Source of the DNA: a virus
Strand: one strand, 5' to 3'
Virus genome (UHGV): UHGV-0217794
Length of the DNA stretch: 27,591 nucleotides
Part shown: positions 4,924-11,817 of the stretch, piece after piece
How the letters are laid out: the number at the start of each line of letters is the position of its first letter
Position numbering within the stretch: the first letter of the stretch is position 1
Notes under the pieces: model-generated
Seen by the model: the letters and a program-made list of their open reading frames with translations, nothing else
Databases searched by the model: none
Told to the model about the DNA's origin: nothing
Made by a program: the position numbers and the translations under genes

Positions 4924-5298
4924 ATGCTCATAGATTTGGTTTTACCTTACCCGCCGACGGTGAACACTTACTGGCGACGCCGTGGCAGCACATATTTTAT
5001 CTCGGAGGAGGGAAAGCGTTATCGCCGGGCTGTGGCGCTTATTGTTCGCCAGCAGCGGCTGAAATTAAGCCTGTCCGGAAGGCTGGCGATAAAGGTGATT
5101 GCAGAGCCACCGGATAAGCGTCGTCGCGACCTGGACAATATCCTGAAAGCACCGCTGGATGCGCTGACGCATGCGGGAGTGTTAATGGACGATGAGCAGT
5201 TTGATGAAATCAATATCGTTCGTGGTCAGCCAGTATCTGGTGGACGTCTGGGGGTGAAGATTTACCCCATAATGCATGAAGAGCAGGTCAAAAAATGA
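4924..5298 (+). CDS. rusA: crossover junction endodeoxyribonuclease RusA (Holliday junction resolvase)
   Basis: 124-aa protein starting MLIDLVLPYPPTVNTYWRRRG with conserved acidic residues (RRDLDNILKAPLDAL); AAGAGGTGA RBS; typical position just upstream of Q. Confidence 0.88.
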   Translation: MLIDLVLPYPPTVNTYWRRRGSTYFISEEGKRYRRAVALIVRQQRLKLSLSGRLAIKVIAEPPDKRRRDLDNILKAPLDALTHAGVLMDDEQFDEINIVRGQPVSGGRLGVKIYPIMHEEQVKK

Positions 5299-6116
5299 AA
5301 CTGGAAGATTTACCGAAATACTACTCCCCAAAATCCCCTTGCCTGACCGATGCATCGGCCTCAACGTCAAAAGATGCGCTGAGTATCACTGATGTGATGG
5401 CCGCGCAGGGCATGACACAGAATCGGGCTGAGATGGGGTTTTCTGCGTTCCTGGGGAAAATGGGCATCAGTATGAATGACAGGGCGCGGGCAACAGAATT
5501 ACTGGCAGATTATGCACTCAGTCGGTGCGATCGTGTGGCGGCGTTGAGAAAACTTCCGGCAGAAATAAAACCGGTAGTGATGCGCATTATGGCTTCGTAC
5601 GCTTTTGAGGATTATGCCCGCAGCGCAGCGAGTAAAAAGCAGTGCCCTTGTTGCTATGGGGAAAAATTTATTGAAAGCGTAGTTTTTACAAACAAGGTCC
5701 AGTATCCGGATGGTAAGCCGCCGGTATGGGCAAAGTGTACGAAAGGTGTGTATCCGTCTTACTGGGAAGAATGGAAAAAAGTCAGGGAGGTGGTAAAAGT
5801 TGCCTGTCCGGAGTGTGGCGGAAAGGGTGAGGTTTCCACCGCCTGTAAGGATTGCCGTGGGCGTGGTGTCGCCATTCACCGTGAAGAGTCGGTAAAACGT
5901 GGTATGCCTGTTATCAGAGACTGCCAGCGTTGTGGTGGTCGTGGCTATGAAAGACTACCATCAACGGAGGCATTTAATGCTATATGCGAGGTGACAAACC
6001 AGATAACACGCGCGTCATGGGAAAAAACAGTTAAGAAATTCTATGATGCGCTGGTGACCCGGTTTGATATTGAAGAAGCATGGGCTGAGCGGCAGTTAAA
6101 AAAGGTAACTAGGTAA
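5295..6116 (+). CDS. late-gene antiterminator, Q family (non-lambda type, multiple CxxC zinc motifs)
   Basis: 273-aa protein with CPCC...C and CPECGGKG...CKDCRGRG...CQRCGGRG motifs; ATGA overlap with rusA; directly followed by a promoter-terminator unit and the late region. Confidence 0.8.
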   Translation: MKLEDLPKYYSPKSPCLTDASASTSKDALSITDVMAAQGMTQNRAEMGFSAFLGKMGISMNDRARATELLADYALSRCDRVAALRKLPAEIKPVVMRIMASYAFEDYARSAASKKQCPCCYGEKFIESVVFTNKVQYPDGKPPVWAKCTKGVYPSYWEEWKKVREVVKVACPECGGKGEVSTACKDCRGRGVAIHREESVKRGMPVIRDCQRCGGRGYERLPSTEAFNAICEVTNQITRASWEKTVKKFYDALVTRFDIEEAWAERQLKKVTR

Positions 6117-6120
6117 CAAG

Positions 6121-6160
6121 GTTGATTTTTCCGGAATCTGTGGTAAATTCATCATAATGA
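6121..6160 (+). promoter_or_regulatory. candidate late promoter (PR'-like) / Q-utilisation region: -35 TTGATT (6122-6127), -10 TAAATT (6144-6149)
   Basis: sigma70-like hexamers directly downstream of Q and about 50 nt upstream of an intrinsic terminator, the lambda PR'-qut-tR' layout; the -10 match is weak. Confidence 0.35.
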
Positions 6161-6198
6161 TGGGCTTTTTATGCCTGACGTTAGAAGAGTTTCTACAA

Positions 6199-6220
6199 CC
6201 CGCCGCCGAGCGGGTTTTTT
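6199..6220 (+). terminator. intrinsic terminator (tR'-like): stem CCCGC/GCGGG followed by six T
   Basis: GC-rich hairpin CCCGCcgccgaGCGGG followed by TTTTTTATT, read directly. Confidence 0.6.
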
Positions 6221-6259
6221 ATTGCGGAATTAATTACGGACCGTTATTATTCTGCTCAC

Positions 6260-6335
6260 GGCCCTTTAGCTCAGTGGTGAGAGCGAGCGACTCATAATCG
6301 CCAGGTCGCTGGTTCAAATCCAGCAAGGGCCACCA
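6260..6335 (+). tRNA. ileZ: tRNA with CAU anticodon, most likely tRNA-Ile2 (lysidine-modified, reads AUA; ileX/ileZ-like); elongator tRNA-Met not excluded
   Basis: 76-nt cloverleaf: acceptor GGCCCTT/AAGGGCC, D-arm GCTCAGTGGTGAGAGC, anticodon loop CTCATAA, T-arm GCTGGTTCAAATCCAGC, 3' ACCA; close to my recollection of E. coli ileX. Confidence 0.85.
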
Positions 6336-6435
6336 TCACAAACCGCCATTAGCTTATCAGGAAGAGCAGACGACGCGATAACAGGGTTGTTGGTGCGGGG
6401 GCGGGTCCCCGATGGCGGTCCATTATCGGTATTCA

Positions 6436-6512
6436 GCGTTGTTAGCTCAGCCGGACAGAGCAATTGCCTTCTAAGCAATCGGTCACTAGTTCGAATCCAG
6501 TACAGCGCGCCA
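6436..6512 (+). tRNA. tRNA-Arg (anticodon UCU, reads AGA/AGG; argN/argO/argU-like)
   Basis: 77-nt cloverleaf: acceptor GCGTTGT/ACAGCGC, D-arm TAGCTCAGCCGGACAGAGC, anticodon loop with TCT, T-loop GTTCGAATCC, 3' GCCA; one mismatch in the T-stem. Confidence 0.8.
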
Positions 6513-6622
6513 TATTCATTCTTCCAGATTCCTTCCGGCAGAGCCTTATACTGAAATATACTTGGCTCAGGATCTTGTTGAAAATATTATATGTTTGTCA
6601 AAAATAAAAGTTCTGTTAAGTA

Positions 6623-6976
6623 TTGATTGAGTGTTTGTTATACCGTCTAATGGTTTTTTCAGCATTAAATATTTATCATTCATATGGTGTGGGTAGAGTG
6701 AATATTGATGAGGCGTCGGGGTGTTTCATCCTTAGGCAGCGTATTGATATAGTCAATGCAGCACGAGCAAAGGCCTTCAGCCGTTTGACAGTTTTGTTTT
6801 GTACTCCTGATCGTCTTTCGGGAAGAGACGTTATTATTCTGAATAGTGATGCTATACAGAGGGTTTGCGATGAGTTCATGGTTGCTAATTCAGAATTATT
6901 TGCTCTTGTTCAGGAGTACAACAGAATAGCCAGGACCTGTGGTATGGATGAACTTCGGATTACTCATCTGGGGTAG
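6623..6976 (+). CDS. hypothetical ORF, 117 aa, doubtful
   Basis: Open frame in the AT-rich moron region but TTG start and no convincing Shine-Dalgarno; may be a gene remnant. Confidence 0.25.
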   Translation: MIECLLYRLMVFSALNIYHSYGVGRVNIDEASGCFILRQRIDIVNAARAKAFSRLTVLFCTPDRLSGRDVIILNSDAIQRVCDEFMVANSELFALVQEYNRIARTCGMDELRITHLG

Positions 6977-7450
6977 ATACATATCTGGATTATCACCTGT
7001 TACGGTAAAAAGTTATTGCTTACTGTTTTTGTGAATGGCATTGCAGCAGCCGGATAATGTCAGTGCTGGCTGACGGTGTGCTGGTGGCGGGTGTGGTGGT
7101 TATTGCTTTCCCGTTGCTGAAAAAGAAAACGCCAGACTGTTAGCCGGGTATCAGTTAGCGGGAGAAATTTTTAAATACTTCACAATTCAGGCGGTTGACT
7201 GTTGTCTGGTTTGCGGGGAGTTTGTTAAAAGAAACTGGCATGGTGAATCCCCCTGTGCGGAGGGGCAATCAGCGAGTAGGTATATGGGATAATCGCGTAT
7301 TCAGGTGCTGGTACTGAATTCACCGGGAGGCACCCGGCACCATGCACTTCAATAGATTCTCTCCACATTATGGATATTCTTTCAGAATATCCCACGCAGA
7401 CTTTGTGTAAATGTTAACAAATGTGCGTTTTATTTGATCTGATTCGCTGT

Positions 7451-7480
7451 TTGAGCGTCCAAAACAACGGTATATATAAT
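7451..7480 (+). promoter_or_regulatory. candidate sigma70 promoter for the lipoprotein moron (-35 TTGAGC 7451-7456, -10 TATAAT 7475-7480)
   Basis: Consensus -10 and good -35 with 18-nt spacer, about 30 nt upstream of the GAGG RBS of the lipoprotein gene. Confidence 0.45.
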
Positions 7481-7509
7481 CCTTTACTATATGACATATG
7501 TGAGGAAAA

Positions 7510-7938
7510 ATGGGTTTTCGTAGCGCATCAATTCTTACGTTGATTATTAGTGGGATTATTATCGGGTGCACTGATGCTGTATCGACAAATTATCATGACC
7601 GTACATCATATTACTCCGATAAAGCAATAGAGACACAGTATGTGAGTTCATCTGAACGTACTTCTGATGTTAGTGAGGATATCCGTCTGTATGCCCATCA
7701 AATCAAGAGCGCCATCGAAAAACAGTTCGGGGATGCGAGTAAGTATTCAGGAAAAGAGTGTACACTGAGAATGCATATGGCCCCGAATGGCCTTCTACTG
7801 GAGGTTAAAAGAGAAAGTGGAGACCTCGATTTATGTCGTGAAGCGATGAATGCGATAAAGAATGCTGATATACCTGCCCCCCCTTCGCCGGAAGTATATA
7901 AAGTATTTCAAAATGGGGTGCTGGATTTTAAACCCTGA
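7510..7938 (+). CDS. lipoprotein with TolA domain-III-like C-terminal domain (142 aa)
   Basis: Signal peptide with lipobox IIGC; C-terminal about 85 aa (YAHQIKSAIEKQFGDASKYSGKECTLRMHMAPNGLLLEVKRESGDLDLCREAMNAIKNADIPAPPSPEVYKVFQNGVLDFKP) aligns residue-by-residue with my recollection of the E. coli TolA C-terminus (YAGQIKSAIESKFYDASSYAGKTCTLRIKLAPDGMLLDIKPEGGDPALCQAALAAAKLAKIPKPPSQAVYEVFKNAPLDFKP). Confidence 0.8.
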   Translation: MGFRSASILTLIISGIIIGCTDAVSTNYHDRTSYYSDKAIETQYVSSSERTSDVSEDIRLYAHQIKSAIEKQFGDASKYSGKECTLRMHMAPNGLLLEVKRESGDLDLCREAMNAIKNADIPAPPSPEVYKVFQNGVLDFKP

Positions 7939-8088
7939 TATTTATTGTTTTGTAATAAACGGTTTCGGCTTAGGTTTGTTCTGACACAACTACGGCACTG
8001 AGCTAAATTTAGCGGATAGTCAGCTCTGAGCCAGTGGCGGACGTAACAACTACTATTGCTGAGATTTTAATGGATTGAGGAGCAAGAA

Positions 8089-8484
8089 GTGGGATTAAAG
8101 AAAATCGTTATGTTGACTTTTTGGGTCGGTTTTGTTGCGGGATGCACACCTTTACACCCTTCAGATTGCCACAAAACTACTGCTACAGGTAGTTGCAGTT
8201 CAGGACGCTGGGATGATCAGGATGAATGGGGGGCGCAAGCGCGGGGAATCAGAGCTGCAATTAATGCCAAACTTGATGAGCCGCATAACTGGAAAGGGAA
8301 AAAATGCAGGTTGCATATGGAATTCTCTCAGGATGGCACGGCGTTAAAAATATCTACCAGTAACGGTGATAAAGCCTATTGCGAAGCGATAAAGTCCGCA
8401 GCTCATAAAGCCAAATTTCCGGCCTTCAACAATCCGGAAGTCTACAGAGATTTTCAGAAATCTGGCTTTGACATGCGAGGTTAG
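8089..8484 (+). CDS. second lipoprotein, divergent paralog of the TolA-III-like lipoprotein (131 aa, GTG start)
   Basis: Signal peptide with lipobox VAGC; C-terminus shares the K-C-L ... G ... GD ... C ... A ... A-FP ... VY ... F ... D pattern with the upstream lipoprotein; GAGGAG RBS 6 nt before GTG. Confidence 0.75.
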   Translation: MGLKKIVMLTFWVGFVAGCTPLHPSDCHKTTATGSCSSGRWDDQDEWGAQARGIRAAINAKLDEPHNWKGKKCRLHMEFSQDGTALKISTSNGDKAYCEAIKSAAHKAKFPAFNNPEVYRDFQKSGFDMRG

Positions 8485-8955: not shown

Positions 8956-9300
8956 ATGACTCAAGTATACGAACTGGTTGTGAAAGGAGTCCGTAATTTT
9001 GAGAATAAAGTTGCGGTAACTTTAGCCTTACAGGACAAAGAACGCTTTGACGGTGAGATTTTTGACCTTGATATCACTATGGATCGTGTTGAAGGTGCTG
9101 CACTGGAGTTTTATGAGGCAGCAGCCAGAAGGAGAATCAGACAGGTGTTCTTGGATGTTGCTGCCGGGTTATGTGAAGGGGATGAGCAGTCGCCGGAAAA
9201 GCGCCCCATAATTTTAGAGGCGCAGAATGTGTGGATAACCTACAAAGGAAAGCTACCAGGAAGAATTACTGGTTATCTGAAGACTCCGCCGGAATGTTAA
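8956..9300 (+). CDS. hypothetical protein between holin and endolysin (114 aa)
   Basis: ATG 5 nt after the holin stop with AGGAGAG RBS; unknown function; same slot as Qin ydfR but homology not verified. Confidence 0.55.
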   Translation: MTQVYELVVKGVRNFENKVAVTLALQDKERFDGEIFDLDITMDRVEGAALEFYEAAARRRIRQVFLDVAAGLCEGDEQSPEKRPIILEAQNVWITYKGKLPGRITGYLKTPPEC

Positions 9301-9538
9301 TTTTAACAGCATATTTCTCTTCCAGTAATGCCACCAGCCACTTGAAGGAATTTTGTTGTTCCTGGGACCATTTGGGGCTGTGTGATTCAAGCTGGAGCGA
9401 TGCCAGTGTTGGTTGCATTTGTTCCCTGGGAATTGACAATGCCAGATATGAAAATGCGACAGTAAGGGCATTAACATCATCCCGAAGCCTGGAAATGCAG
9501 TCGAGCAACTCCTGAAGAGAAATGGTGTTATTGTCCAT
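9266..9538 (-). CDS. hypothetical reverse-strand protein (90 aa) inside the lysis cassette
   Basis: ATG at 9536-9538 preceded by a strong AAGAGGA Shine-Dalgarno at optimal spacing; convergent with and overlapping the 3' end of the upstream gene by 35 nt. Confidence 0.45.
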   Translation of the reverse strand: MDNNTISLQELLDCISRLRDDVNALTVAFSYLALSIPREQMQPTLASLQLESHSPKWSQEQQNSFKWLVALLEEKYAVKINIPAESSDNQ

Positions 9539-10300: not shown

Positions 10301-10336
10301 GTGTTTCCTGACTCCGGAAAAGCCAAAGGAGAAAGT

Positions 10337-10474
10337 GTGTTTGATTTTAGCAAACTGATTCGGGAGATTCGAACTATGGTTGAAAAATTATCCACCTGGA
10401 AATTCATTCTTTTCTGGCTGGTGTTTGCGATTATGGCCTCCGGTTATTTCATTGCTCAGATACGCTGGTGGTGA
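10337..10474 (+). CDS. putative small membrane protein (45 aa from GTG, or 32 aa from ATG 10376)
   Basis: AAGGAG RBS just upstream of GTG; one hydrophobic helix ([20 protein letters not shown]); stop 1 nt before the Rz start; below the ORF-track size cutoff. Confidence 0.35.
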
Positions 10475-10940: not shown

Positions 10941-11257
10941 AAACCGGCCAAGGATAATCCGCTGAAGATTCGCCGGGGCTAGAGAGAGCCAAAGCTTTAA
11001 TTGACACCATTACTCATAGCAAGGCAATGCATCGTTTTTATGAGGTCAATAGATGCCTGATTTATTTCTGTGCTCCGTATCGTCGCTGTATTCCTTCGTT
11101 AACCATGAGTGTAGTCCGACGGGGAGCACGAGTGTATGGGAATAATAAAAAAAGATACACACCTGGGTTTACCGCTTTTATGCTTCGCGGGTTTGCTCTT
11201 CATGCAGCTAGTCCGGTACAGAGGTGTATGAAACCGGACTGCTGATTTAATTAATTC

Positions 11258-11662
11258 CTATATTAATGGTCTGTTATTTTCAACATCTTCCATGTACAAA
11301 AGATCGTGATCAAACGAATAGTAAAACCTTATGTTTTTATCTATATCTGTAATCCAGCGATAAACACCTGCTTTTGCTAAAGTGAGACGATATTGATGAA
11401 ATGTAGATTTACCTGATATAAGATTTCTGGCTGCTTCTTTAATTAATTCTGGTTTCTTTGATGTGCTAACTTTCACAAGTCCTCTACTGCCTCGAACTAA
11501 TAAAATATTATCATCATGAGTAATTAGTCTTATATTATCAGTAGCCAGATAATAAATATAATGCGCAATATTATGGCGTTTTAATTCGGAGTAAAACCAT
11601 GGGAAGTATAAATTACTTCTAACGTGTTCGAATATCTCTTGAAAAATATCTGCCTGCTCCAT
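11258..11662 (-). CDS. hypothetical protein, reverse-oriented moron at the bor-equivalent locus (134 aa from ATG 11662)
   Basis: Opposite strand to all flanking late genes; visibly AT-rich (not computed); AAGAGGA Shine-Dalgarno upstream of ATG; aromatic-rich sequence with no family I recognise. Confidence 0.6.
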   Translation of the reverse strand: MEQADIFQEIFEHVRSNLYFPWFYSELKRHNIAHYIYYLATDNIRLITHDDNILLVRGSRGLVKVSTSKKPELIKEAARNLISGKSTFHQYRLTLAKAGVYRWITDIDKNIRFYYSFDHDLLYMEDVENNRPLI

Positions 11663-11817
11663 CAGGAAATATCCTCTTGTCACTGCTACTTCTTACCATG
11701 AGCTTAGATAGTTTGCATGATTTGTTCTCTCACATCAATCTGATCCGACCTCATTGAGGTGGGCGTTGTGAATACCTGATAAGAAATGTGGGTCCTCCCA
11801 ATGGGGGAGGCTGGCAC

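Follow-up and report, generated by a model that had tools for sequence, protein, structure and literature searches.

Since the late 1990s, the ileZ-argN-argO cassette of transfer RNA (tRNA) genes has been a textbook accessory of lambdoid prophages, Shiga toxin (Stx) phages among them. The rare-codon rationale for phage tRNAs is decades old. In the Stx phages considered here (Sakai Sp5, Stx2a_WGPS8, and the 933W type), the three genes lie between the late antiterminator gene Q, with its PR'-tR' promoter-terminator unit, and the accessory slot occupied by stx, 5' of the lysis genes. The RNA made from the PR'-tR' unit is the 6S RNA in lambda, with a length of 194 nucleotides (nt), and StxS in the Stx phages, where a transcript of 258 nt is processed to 74 nt. 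T4-like large lytic coliphages also carry tRNAs for Ile (AUA-reading) and Arg(UCU).

Here, we analyzed a DNA stretch of 27,591 nt, the UHGV virus genome UHGV-0217794 (hereafter, the window), which belongs to a mosaic lambdoid prophage of Escherichia coli, and we focused on its interval 6121-6512, directly 3' of Q. This interval is an Stx-type ileZ-argN-argO cassette in a non-Stx prophage, present as the common two-tRNA derivative. The cassette is already known and annotated in RefSeq, so confirming it adds little; mildly new are a widespread and unannotated relic of argN and a sequence-level definition of the cassette promoter.

ARAGORN found exactly two tRNA genes in the window, both on the plus strand, with the anticodons CAT and TCT (Table 1). 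The Rfam tRNA model RF00005, whose gathering score is 29 bits, matched the same two genes with 72.5 bits (6260-6332, E = 3e-14) and 62.5 bits (6436-6509, E = 2e-11), and 100%-identical DNA in E. coli chromosomes is annotated in RefSeq as tRNA-Ile and tRNA-Arg by the Prokaryotic Genome Annotation Pipeline (PGAP). The three sources agree with the initial annotation, which had read tRNA-Ile2(CAU) and tRNA-Arg(UCU) in this interval. The label “Met” that ARAGORN gives to the CAU tRNA reflects the literal anticodon only. We also dismissed an antisense “Plastid-ycf2” Rfam match on ileZ, as a tRNA-antisense artefact, and two open reading frames (ORFs) overlapping the tRNAs (6314-6478, minus strand, and 6387-6554, plus strand), as spurious.

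The isoleucine gene is identical to the Stx2a-phage ileZ at 76 of 76 positions and to K-12 ileX at 68 of 76 (89%), with a fully identical anticodon stem-loop. Its acceptor strands, GGCCCUU/AAGGGCC, form the pairs C4-G69 and C5-G68, which are determinants for TilS, and A73 is present, as in an Ile2-type body. The arginine gene matches the Stx-phage argO at 75 of 77 positions, and both differences weaken stems: the acceptor stem has a U4:G69 wobble, and the fourth pair of the T stem is an A:C mismatch, at gene position 53 (G53A). It shares A20, G73, and the anticodon loop CUUCUAA with host argU, although the acceptor, anticodon, and T stems differ and the overall identity is only ~72%. The anticodons and anticodon loops of both phage tRNAs are thus those of host ileX/ileY and argU; unlike the host minor tRNA genes, the phage genes are clustered and prophage-borne.

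Across the population arrays, ileZ is near-invariant (nucleotide diversity 0.005-0.012). The U:G acceptor variant of argO is common among arrays of the window's type. The G53A allele was seen in none of the 96 other sampled arrays and in four IMG/VR contigs, and 106 E. coli records match the argO gene carrying it exactly (an argO-type gene is present in 2,368 genomes). In seven copies elsewhere in the population, C51G and G65C occur together as a compensated swap in the argO T stem, which argues that this stem is normally under selection. The near-invariance of ileZ and the compensated swap indicate that selection acts on the cassette in the population. The window argO is probably functional. 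Minimum free energy folding of the single tRNAs was uninformative: the functional ileZ and the Stx argO also fold into no cloverleaf, so folding supports no conclusion on the A:C mismatch. A species-level scan with the 3' half of ileZ found the allele confined to Escherichia/Shigella and a few metagenome-assembled genomes, and it offered no deep divergence for covariation analysis. A literature search on ileZ, argN, and argO, limited in scope, returned nothing relevant.

Judging from the alignment to the Stx-phage argN(UCG), the interval contains a third tRNA-derived element in addition to the two genes. The gap between ileZ and argO is 100 nt, against 7-13 nt between the three genes in the Stx phages, and it contains a degenerate argN. 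On the 5' side of this relic, the acceptor strand and the D arm are conserved (CCGCCATTAGCT...), and on the 3' side, the T stem, the acceptor strand, and the CCA (...CGATGGCGGTCCA). The anticodon arm, which carries UCG when intact, is replaced by unrelated sequence, and the T loop is GCGGGT where the intact gene has TTCGAGT. The relic obtained no ARAGORN call and no Rfam tRNA match even at E <= 10. The initial annotation had recognized the arrangement known from Stx phages, and this part stands: Q, PR'-tR', tRNAs, and cargo follow in the same order and on the same strand, the cassette has the same location relative to the accessory slot and the lysis genes, and the upstream block and the argN flanks are shared, as are the ileZ and argO alleles to the extent given above. 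The decayed argN had been overlooked, and because it is a pseudogene the array does not comprise three intact tRNAs; moreover, the window argO differs from its Stx counterpart by the two stem changes.

The window-type variant is frequent. In the IMG/VR arrays, argN is intact in 60-65, and 26 of the 97 sampled arrays are two-tRNA derivatives of the window's type. Single chimeric copies hold one lesion without the other, so the anticodon-arm and T-loop lesions are separable. By anchoring on the 5' part only, we collected 114 further copies of the relic. All of their changes are uncompensated, and two G-to-A hits break acceptor pairs (in three and five copies, respectively); the length of the G run is variable, and single-base deletions occur in the T arm. 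The relic was matched in 1,760 of 5,426 complete E. coli genomes (~32%), with no feature annotated in the listed records, which makes the middle gene a widespread unannotated pseudogene that is useful to know for annotation. Nucleotide diversity was not decisive as a pseudogene test (0.008 for the variant argN and 0.074 for the intact one, the most variable member of the array), since the variant allele is young and nearly clonal. From the lesions and the uncompensated changes, we read the relic as a pseudogene carried between two functional genes. The IMG/VR arrays are recombinogenic: some hold a single argN-5'/argO-3' fusion gene (UCU) directly after ileZ, in other contigs ileZ is followed by different tRNAs (loop CCTTTAA, then anticodon TGT), and in a few contigs argO is truncated after the anticodon arm.

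The position of the tRNAs 3' of a Q promoter-terminator unit, which the initial annotation had also noticed, was borne out by comparison with lambda. The PR'/tR'-like unit is the first part of the interval (6121-6226). It reads TTGATT (6122-6127, -35), 16 nt, TAAATT (6144-6149, -10), CATCAT, AATGAT (6156-6161), and GGG (6162-6164), to be compared with TTGACT-17-TAAATT-TGACTC-AACGAT-GGG in lambda PR' (NC_001416). The two share the -10 hexamer, the 6-nt gap, the AA(C/T)GAT element, and the GGG at lambda spacing. Further on, the tR'-like hairpin (6197-6216) has a 7-bp G+C-rich stem with five G-C pairs and a 6-nt loop, and is followed by T6. The unit is well supported by this match and resembles lambda and StxS in having a constitutive late promoter, a pause element, and a terminator directly 3' of Q; the pausing and late-promoter functions are putative, and the dependence on Q is presumed. 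With a start near 6156, a terminated RNA of ~65 nt is predicted in the lysogen, of an origin analogous to that of the lambda 6S RNA and StxS. In the Stx phages, by comparison, the corresponding RNA has 258 nt and Q is of another type. Sub-threshold Rfam matches in 6117-6223 (Trp leader, P9, and isrK, the last with 18 bits) were dismissed as terminator-driven artefacts.

Homology with the Stx phages starts at ~6220, ~40 nt 5' of ileZ, at a promoter-like block whose TATTAT lies 9 nt from the mature 5' end of ileZ. The comparison of 218 arrays with 48 distinct upstream sequences showed that the regions upstream of -40 belong to unrelated classes (four or more contexts, with a mean majority-base fraction of 0.47), whereas TTGNNN, the 17-nt spacer, and TATTAT are kept across contexts. 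TATTAT is at a fixed offset in 195 of the 218 arrays, with a column conservation of 0.90, and the same block stands 5' of ileZ in Sakai Sp5. Furthermore, differential RNA sequencing of enterohaemorrhagic E. coli Sakai by Sy et al. (PMC7547250) reported a primary transcription start site (TSS) driving the homologous tRNAs in uninduced-type cultures. The block and this TSS suggest that expression of the tRNAs is probably not purely Q-dependent, and that the dependence on PR' and Q implied by the initial annotation is probably incomplete. For annotation, it is useful that the cassette moves with its own conserved promoter-like block.

Then, we counted the codons read by the two tRNAs on a curated gene set, which replaced a first greedy ORF set affected by antisense artefacts, and compared them with a host sample of 42 K-12 core genes. 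AUA, AGA, and AGG together amount to 4.3 per 1000 codons in the host sample and 12.2 in the structural genes of the prophage. They reach 27.0 in the early genes, 34 in the supported plus-strand cargo (47 when the first cargo gene after the tRNAs is included), 41 in the lysis genes, and about 90 in the minus-strand DUF1398 gene. Early, lysis, and accessory genes use these codons 3 to 11 times as often as the host core genes. The classic cargo gene stx2A has 72 per 1000, with AUA at 15 of its 20 Ile codons. The expectation of the initial annotation that the adjacent AT-rich morons are enriched in these codons holds against the structural genes, with an odds ratio (OR) of about 3-5 for the cargo. 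For cargo plus lysis genes, the OR is 3.25 (p = 1e-6), and 7.2 for AGA alone; it is still 3.4 when ATA is compared with ATT as a same-composition control. The enrichment is strongest directly beside the tRNAs, but the early and lysis genes share it: between cargo plus lysis and early genes there was no significant overall difference (p = 0.14), and AGA alone differed (p = 0.006).

Together, these results make it probable, in our view, that the cassette supplements the two scarcest decoders of the host, being transcribed in the lysogen from a promoter of its own, with PR' contributing after induction, to the benefit of all AT-richer genes of the prophage. It would provide one extra gene copy each of tRNA-Ile2 and tRNA-Arg(UCU), the scarcest decoders of E. 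coli. The former would read AUA after lysidinylation by TilS, and the latter AGA and, less well, AGG. Transcription would most likely start about 2-3 nt 5' of ileZ, from the sigma70-type promoter TTGCGG-17-TATTAT, so that the lysogen would already have the tRNAs; Q-modified RNA polymerase passing tR' would add transcript once the prophage is induced. Both tRNAs, with their CCA ends encoded, would be freed by RNase P and by trimming at the 3' side. The expected beneficiaries are the early, lysis, and accessory genes, and not the adjacent morons specifically. A similar logic applies to the T4-type phages, in which phage decoders serve rare host codons over-used by the phage's own AT-richer genes. 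The window differs in being a temperate prophage with a two-gene cassette that is probably expressed in the lysogen too.

Several observations weigh against this explanation. Expression, modification, and translational benefit are steps that we infer, the observed facts being gene identity, homology, position, promoter conservation, and codon frequencies; likewise, the conserved block is a putative source of the Sakai TSS. Rare-codon frequency tracks the GC content at third codon positions (GC3; rho = -0.51, p = 0.002), and the genes for the most abundantly made proteins, namely the capsid/protease fusion, gpV, and gpU, hold almost none of these codons. The enrichment is indeed a general property of the non-structural, lower-GC prophage genes and is not moron-specific. 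The specific match between tRNAs and morons suggested initially was therefore abandoned, also because the DUF1398 gene lies on the opposite strand and outside the late operon. This is relevant to the idea that phage tRNAs feed rare-codon cargo, since the enrichment covers all non-structural genes and follows GC3. Moreover, argN has decayed though its codons, CGA and CGG, are over-used ~3-fold in the prophage (20 per 1000 in the structural genes vs 6 in the host sample), and whether argN is intact or dead made no difference to the frequency of CGA/CGG in the cargo (16.4 against 14.5 per 1000, p = 0.09, on crude ORF calls). A tight matching of tRNAs to demand is disfavored by both facts. Finally, the Rfam score of the window argO is 7.6 bits lower than that of the Stx argO (70.1 bits), with the A:C pair marked in the alignment, so that one or both tRNAs may be weakened without obvious cost.

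The alternative that follows from the initial annotation, in which the cassette has no promoter of its own and the tRNAs are produced only by Q-dependent read-through of tR' during lytic growth, for the cargo and the lysis genes, appears unlikely to us. It would fit the placement of the tRNAs in the late operon, on the same strand and 40 nt 3' of the tR' hairpin, and the richness of the lysis genes in cognate codons, but AUA is just as frequent in the early genes, whose expression precedes the action of Q. Similarly, a consensus promoter scan lists no promoter 5' of ileZ, where the -35 matches at 3/6 positions only; the TTGNNN-17-TATTAT block nonetheless accompanies the cassette into unrelated upstream contexts, and the primary TSS in Sakai was detected in uninduced-type cultures.

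Less credible still is a cassette with little or no translational benefit, which would persist as a conserved stretch of homology bordering the cargo slot, promoting the exchange of modules among lambdoid phages while it slowly decays. Homology with the Stx phages extends from ~6220 to just past the argO CCA, which has the look of a mosaic unit, and the chimeric argN variants and argN/argO fusion genes attest recombination inside the array; an IS200 element is inserted beside the cassette in a relative. Decay is visible in argN, which is dead in the window as in roughly one complete E. coli genome in three, and in the uncompensated mismatch of the window argO. However, a near-invariant ileZ and the compensated stem change in argO point to purifying selection on structure, the promoter hexamers are conserved, and the two tRNAs that were kept decode exactly the scarcest codons over-used by the prophage.

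The relic itself might yield a stable, tRNA-like RNA with a role other than decoding. Its 7-bp acceptor stem is perfect, the stems of the D and T arms are kept, and CCA is encoded; flanked by two tRNAs taken as transcribed, the relic may be co-transcribed with them and cut by RNase P. A second possibility is that the tRNA promoter drives a tRNA-mRNA co-transcript that expresses the first cargo gene in the lysogen: the terminator scan found no terminator 3' of argO in the window, unlike in Sp5 (L132:1530-1549), so transcription could run on into that gene. We consider these proposals very unlikely.

Replacement of host tRNAs cut by anticodon nucleases has been proposed for tRNA-rich lytic phages, and phage tRNAs counter tRNA-targeting defenses elsewhere. 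Applied to this cassette, for instance against a colicin D-type nuclease acting on tRNA-Arg, such a role could build on the anticodon stem of argO (AUUGC/GCAAU, vs ACGAC/GUCGU in host argU). Both anticodon loops match host ileX and argU exactly, which gives no hint of evasion through the loop, and codon supply explains the choice of rare-codon isoacceptors more simply. No nuclease or defense context came up near the cassette, where no search aimed at it was made; we judge this role highly improbable. Finally, tRNA genes are common integration sites, and a 2026 preprint on Pas small RNAs (sRNAs) reads tRNA matches near prophage sRNAs as integration-site remnants. On this view, the matches in the window would be a chromosomal attachment site captured through prophage rearrangement. 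We give it almost no credit: neither gene is truncated, each encodes its CCA, and the promoter-like block is conserved; the cassette lies in mid-prophage, with Q on one side and the lysis genes on the other and at a distance from any integrase, and the same cassette is found in deposited Stx phage genome records. Hence, tRNA matches near prophage sRNAs are not automatically integration-site remnants.

Table 1. Coordinates of the cassette, the late-switch unit, and neighboring features in the window
Feature	Coordinates	Strand	Evidence or description
Early genes	5' of Q		cI/cro-like, YdaT, hok-type, rem, DUF968, rusA
Late antiterminator Q	5295-6116	+	273 amino acids; PF03589 Antiterm, Pfam E = 6e-55
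PR'-like late promoter and sigma70-dependent pause element (putative)	6122-6164	+	Comparison with lambda PR' (NC_001416)
Predicted terminated RNA	6156-6222	+	Start near 6156
tR'-like intrinsic terminator	6197-6220	+	Terminator scan; also hairpin in the fold of 6156-6226
Conserved promoter-like block	6222-6250	+	TTGCGG 6222-6227, 17-nt spacer, TATTAT 6245-6250
tRNA-Ile2, anticodon CAU, ileZ allele, CCA encoded	6260-6335	+	ARAGORN, Rfam, RefSeq
Degenerate argN (pseudo-tRNA)	6343-6422	+	Alignment to Stx-phage argN(UCG)
tRNA-Arg, anticodon UCU, argO allele, CCA encoded	6436-6512	+	ARAGORN, Rfam, RefSeq
First cargo gene after the tRNAs	6623-6976	+	phrog_2873, E = 4e-70, end to end
STnc100 sRNA match, full length	7209-7399	+	RF02076, 108 bits (gathering score 47)
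TolA C-terminal domain proteins	7510-7938; 8089-8484	+	PF06519; both phrog_5772
90-amino-acid ORF	9266-9538	-	phrog_2411, end to end, E = 3e-53
Two ORFs flanking Rz	10301-10474; 11027-11245	+	phrog_6632 (unknown function); weak Rz-like spanin match phrog_6954
DUF1398 gene	11258-11683	-	GC 0.32
Gene order after Q			tRNAs, AT-rich accessory region, holin, DUF1327, lysozyme, Rz, DUF1398 (minus strand), terminase, portal, capsid, tail

For the 3 kb around the cassette (5300-8300), identity is 100% with many E. coli chromosomes and 99.3% with phage mEp460_ev081. Besides PF03589, the Q protein has a DnaJ-type Cys-rich region, and its RefSeq label is “antitermination protein.” In the closest full-length relative, E. 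coli C6 (NZ_CP195945.1; L004:12768-13226), an IS200C transposase gene lies between Q and the tRNA-Ile gene.

Where the Stx phages carry stxAB, the window has a small protein encoded by the first cargo gene, followed by the STnc100 sRNA and two lipoproteins with a TolA C-terminal domain, as well as a DUF3927 protein. The first cargo gene has TTG 6623, ATG 6650, and GTG 6698 as start candidates and is left without annotation in RefSeq. Its homologues, found in E. coli and Shigella only, have 54-60% identity and keep the frame; on this basis, together with the end-to-end phrog_2873 match, we took it as a real gene. Its cognate rare codons are 8-9 in 91-116 codons, depending on the start; with 8 in 91, their density is similar to that in stx2A.

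According to the 2026 Pas sRNA preprint, STnc100 is related to the PasD sRNAs found near Q genes of the PF03589 type. The two TolA-C proteins are paralogous, small, and lipoprotein-like, and are encoded between the tRNA cassette and the holin gene; they may exclude colicins or Tol-dependent phages. RefSeq describes the first of them as a tolA pseudogene fragment, whereas the window contains an intact ORF of 142 amino acids.

The 90-amino-acid ORF on the minus strand is located between DUF1327 and the lysozyme gene; it has no Pfam match, and the closest RefSeq relative sharing the tRNA region lacks this segment. The DUF1398 gene, between the lysis and packaging modules, has the highest AUA/AGA density in the window.

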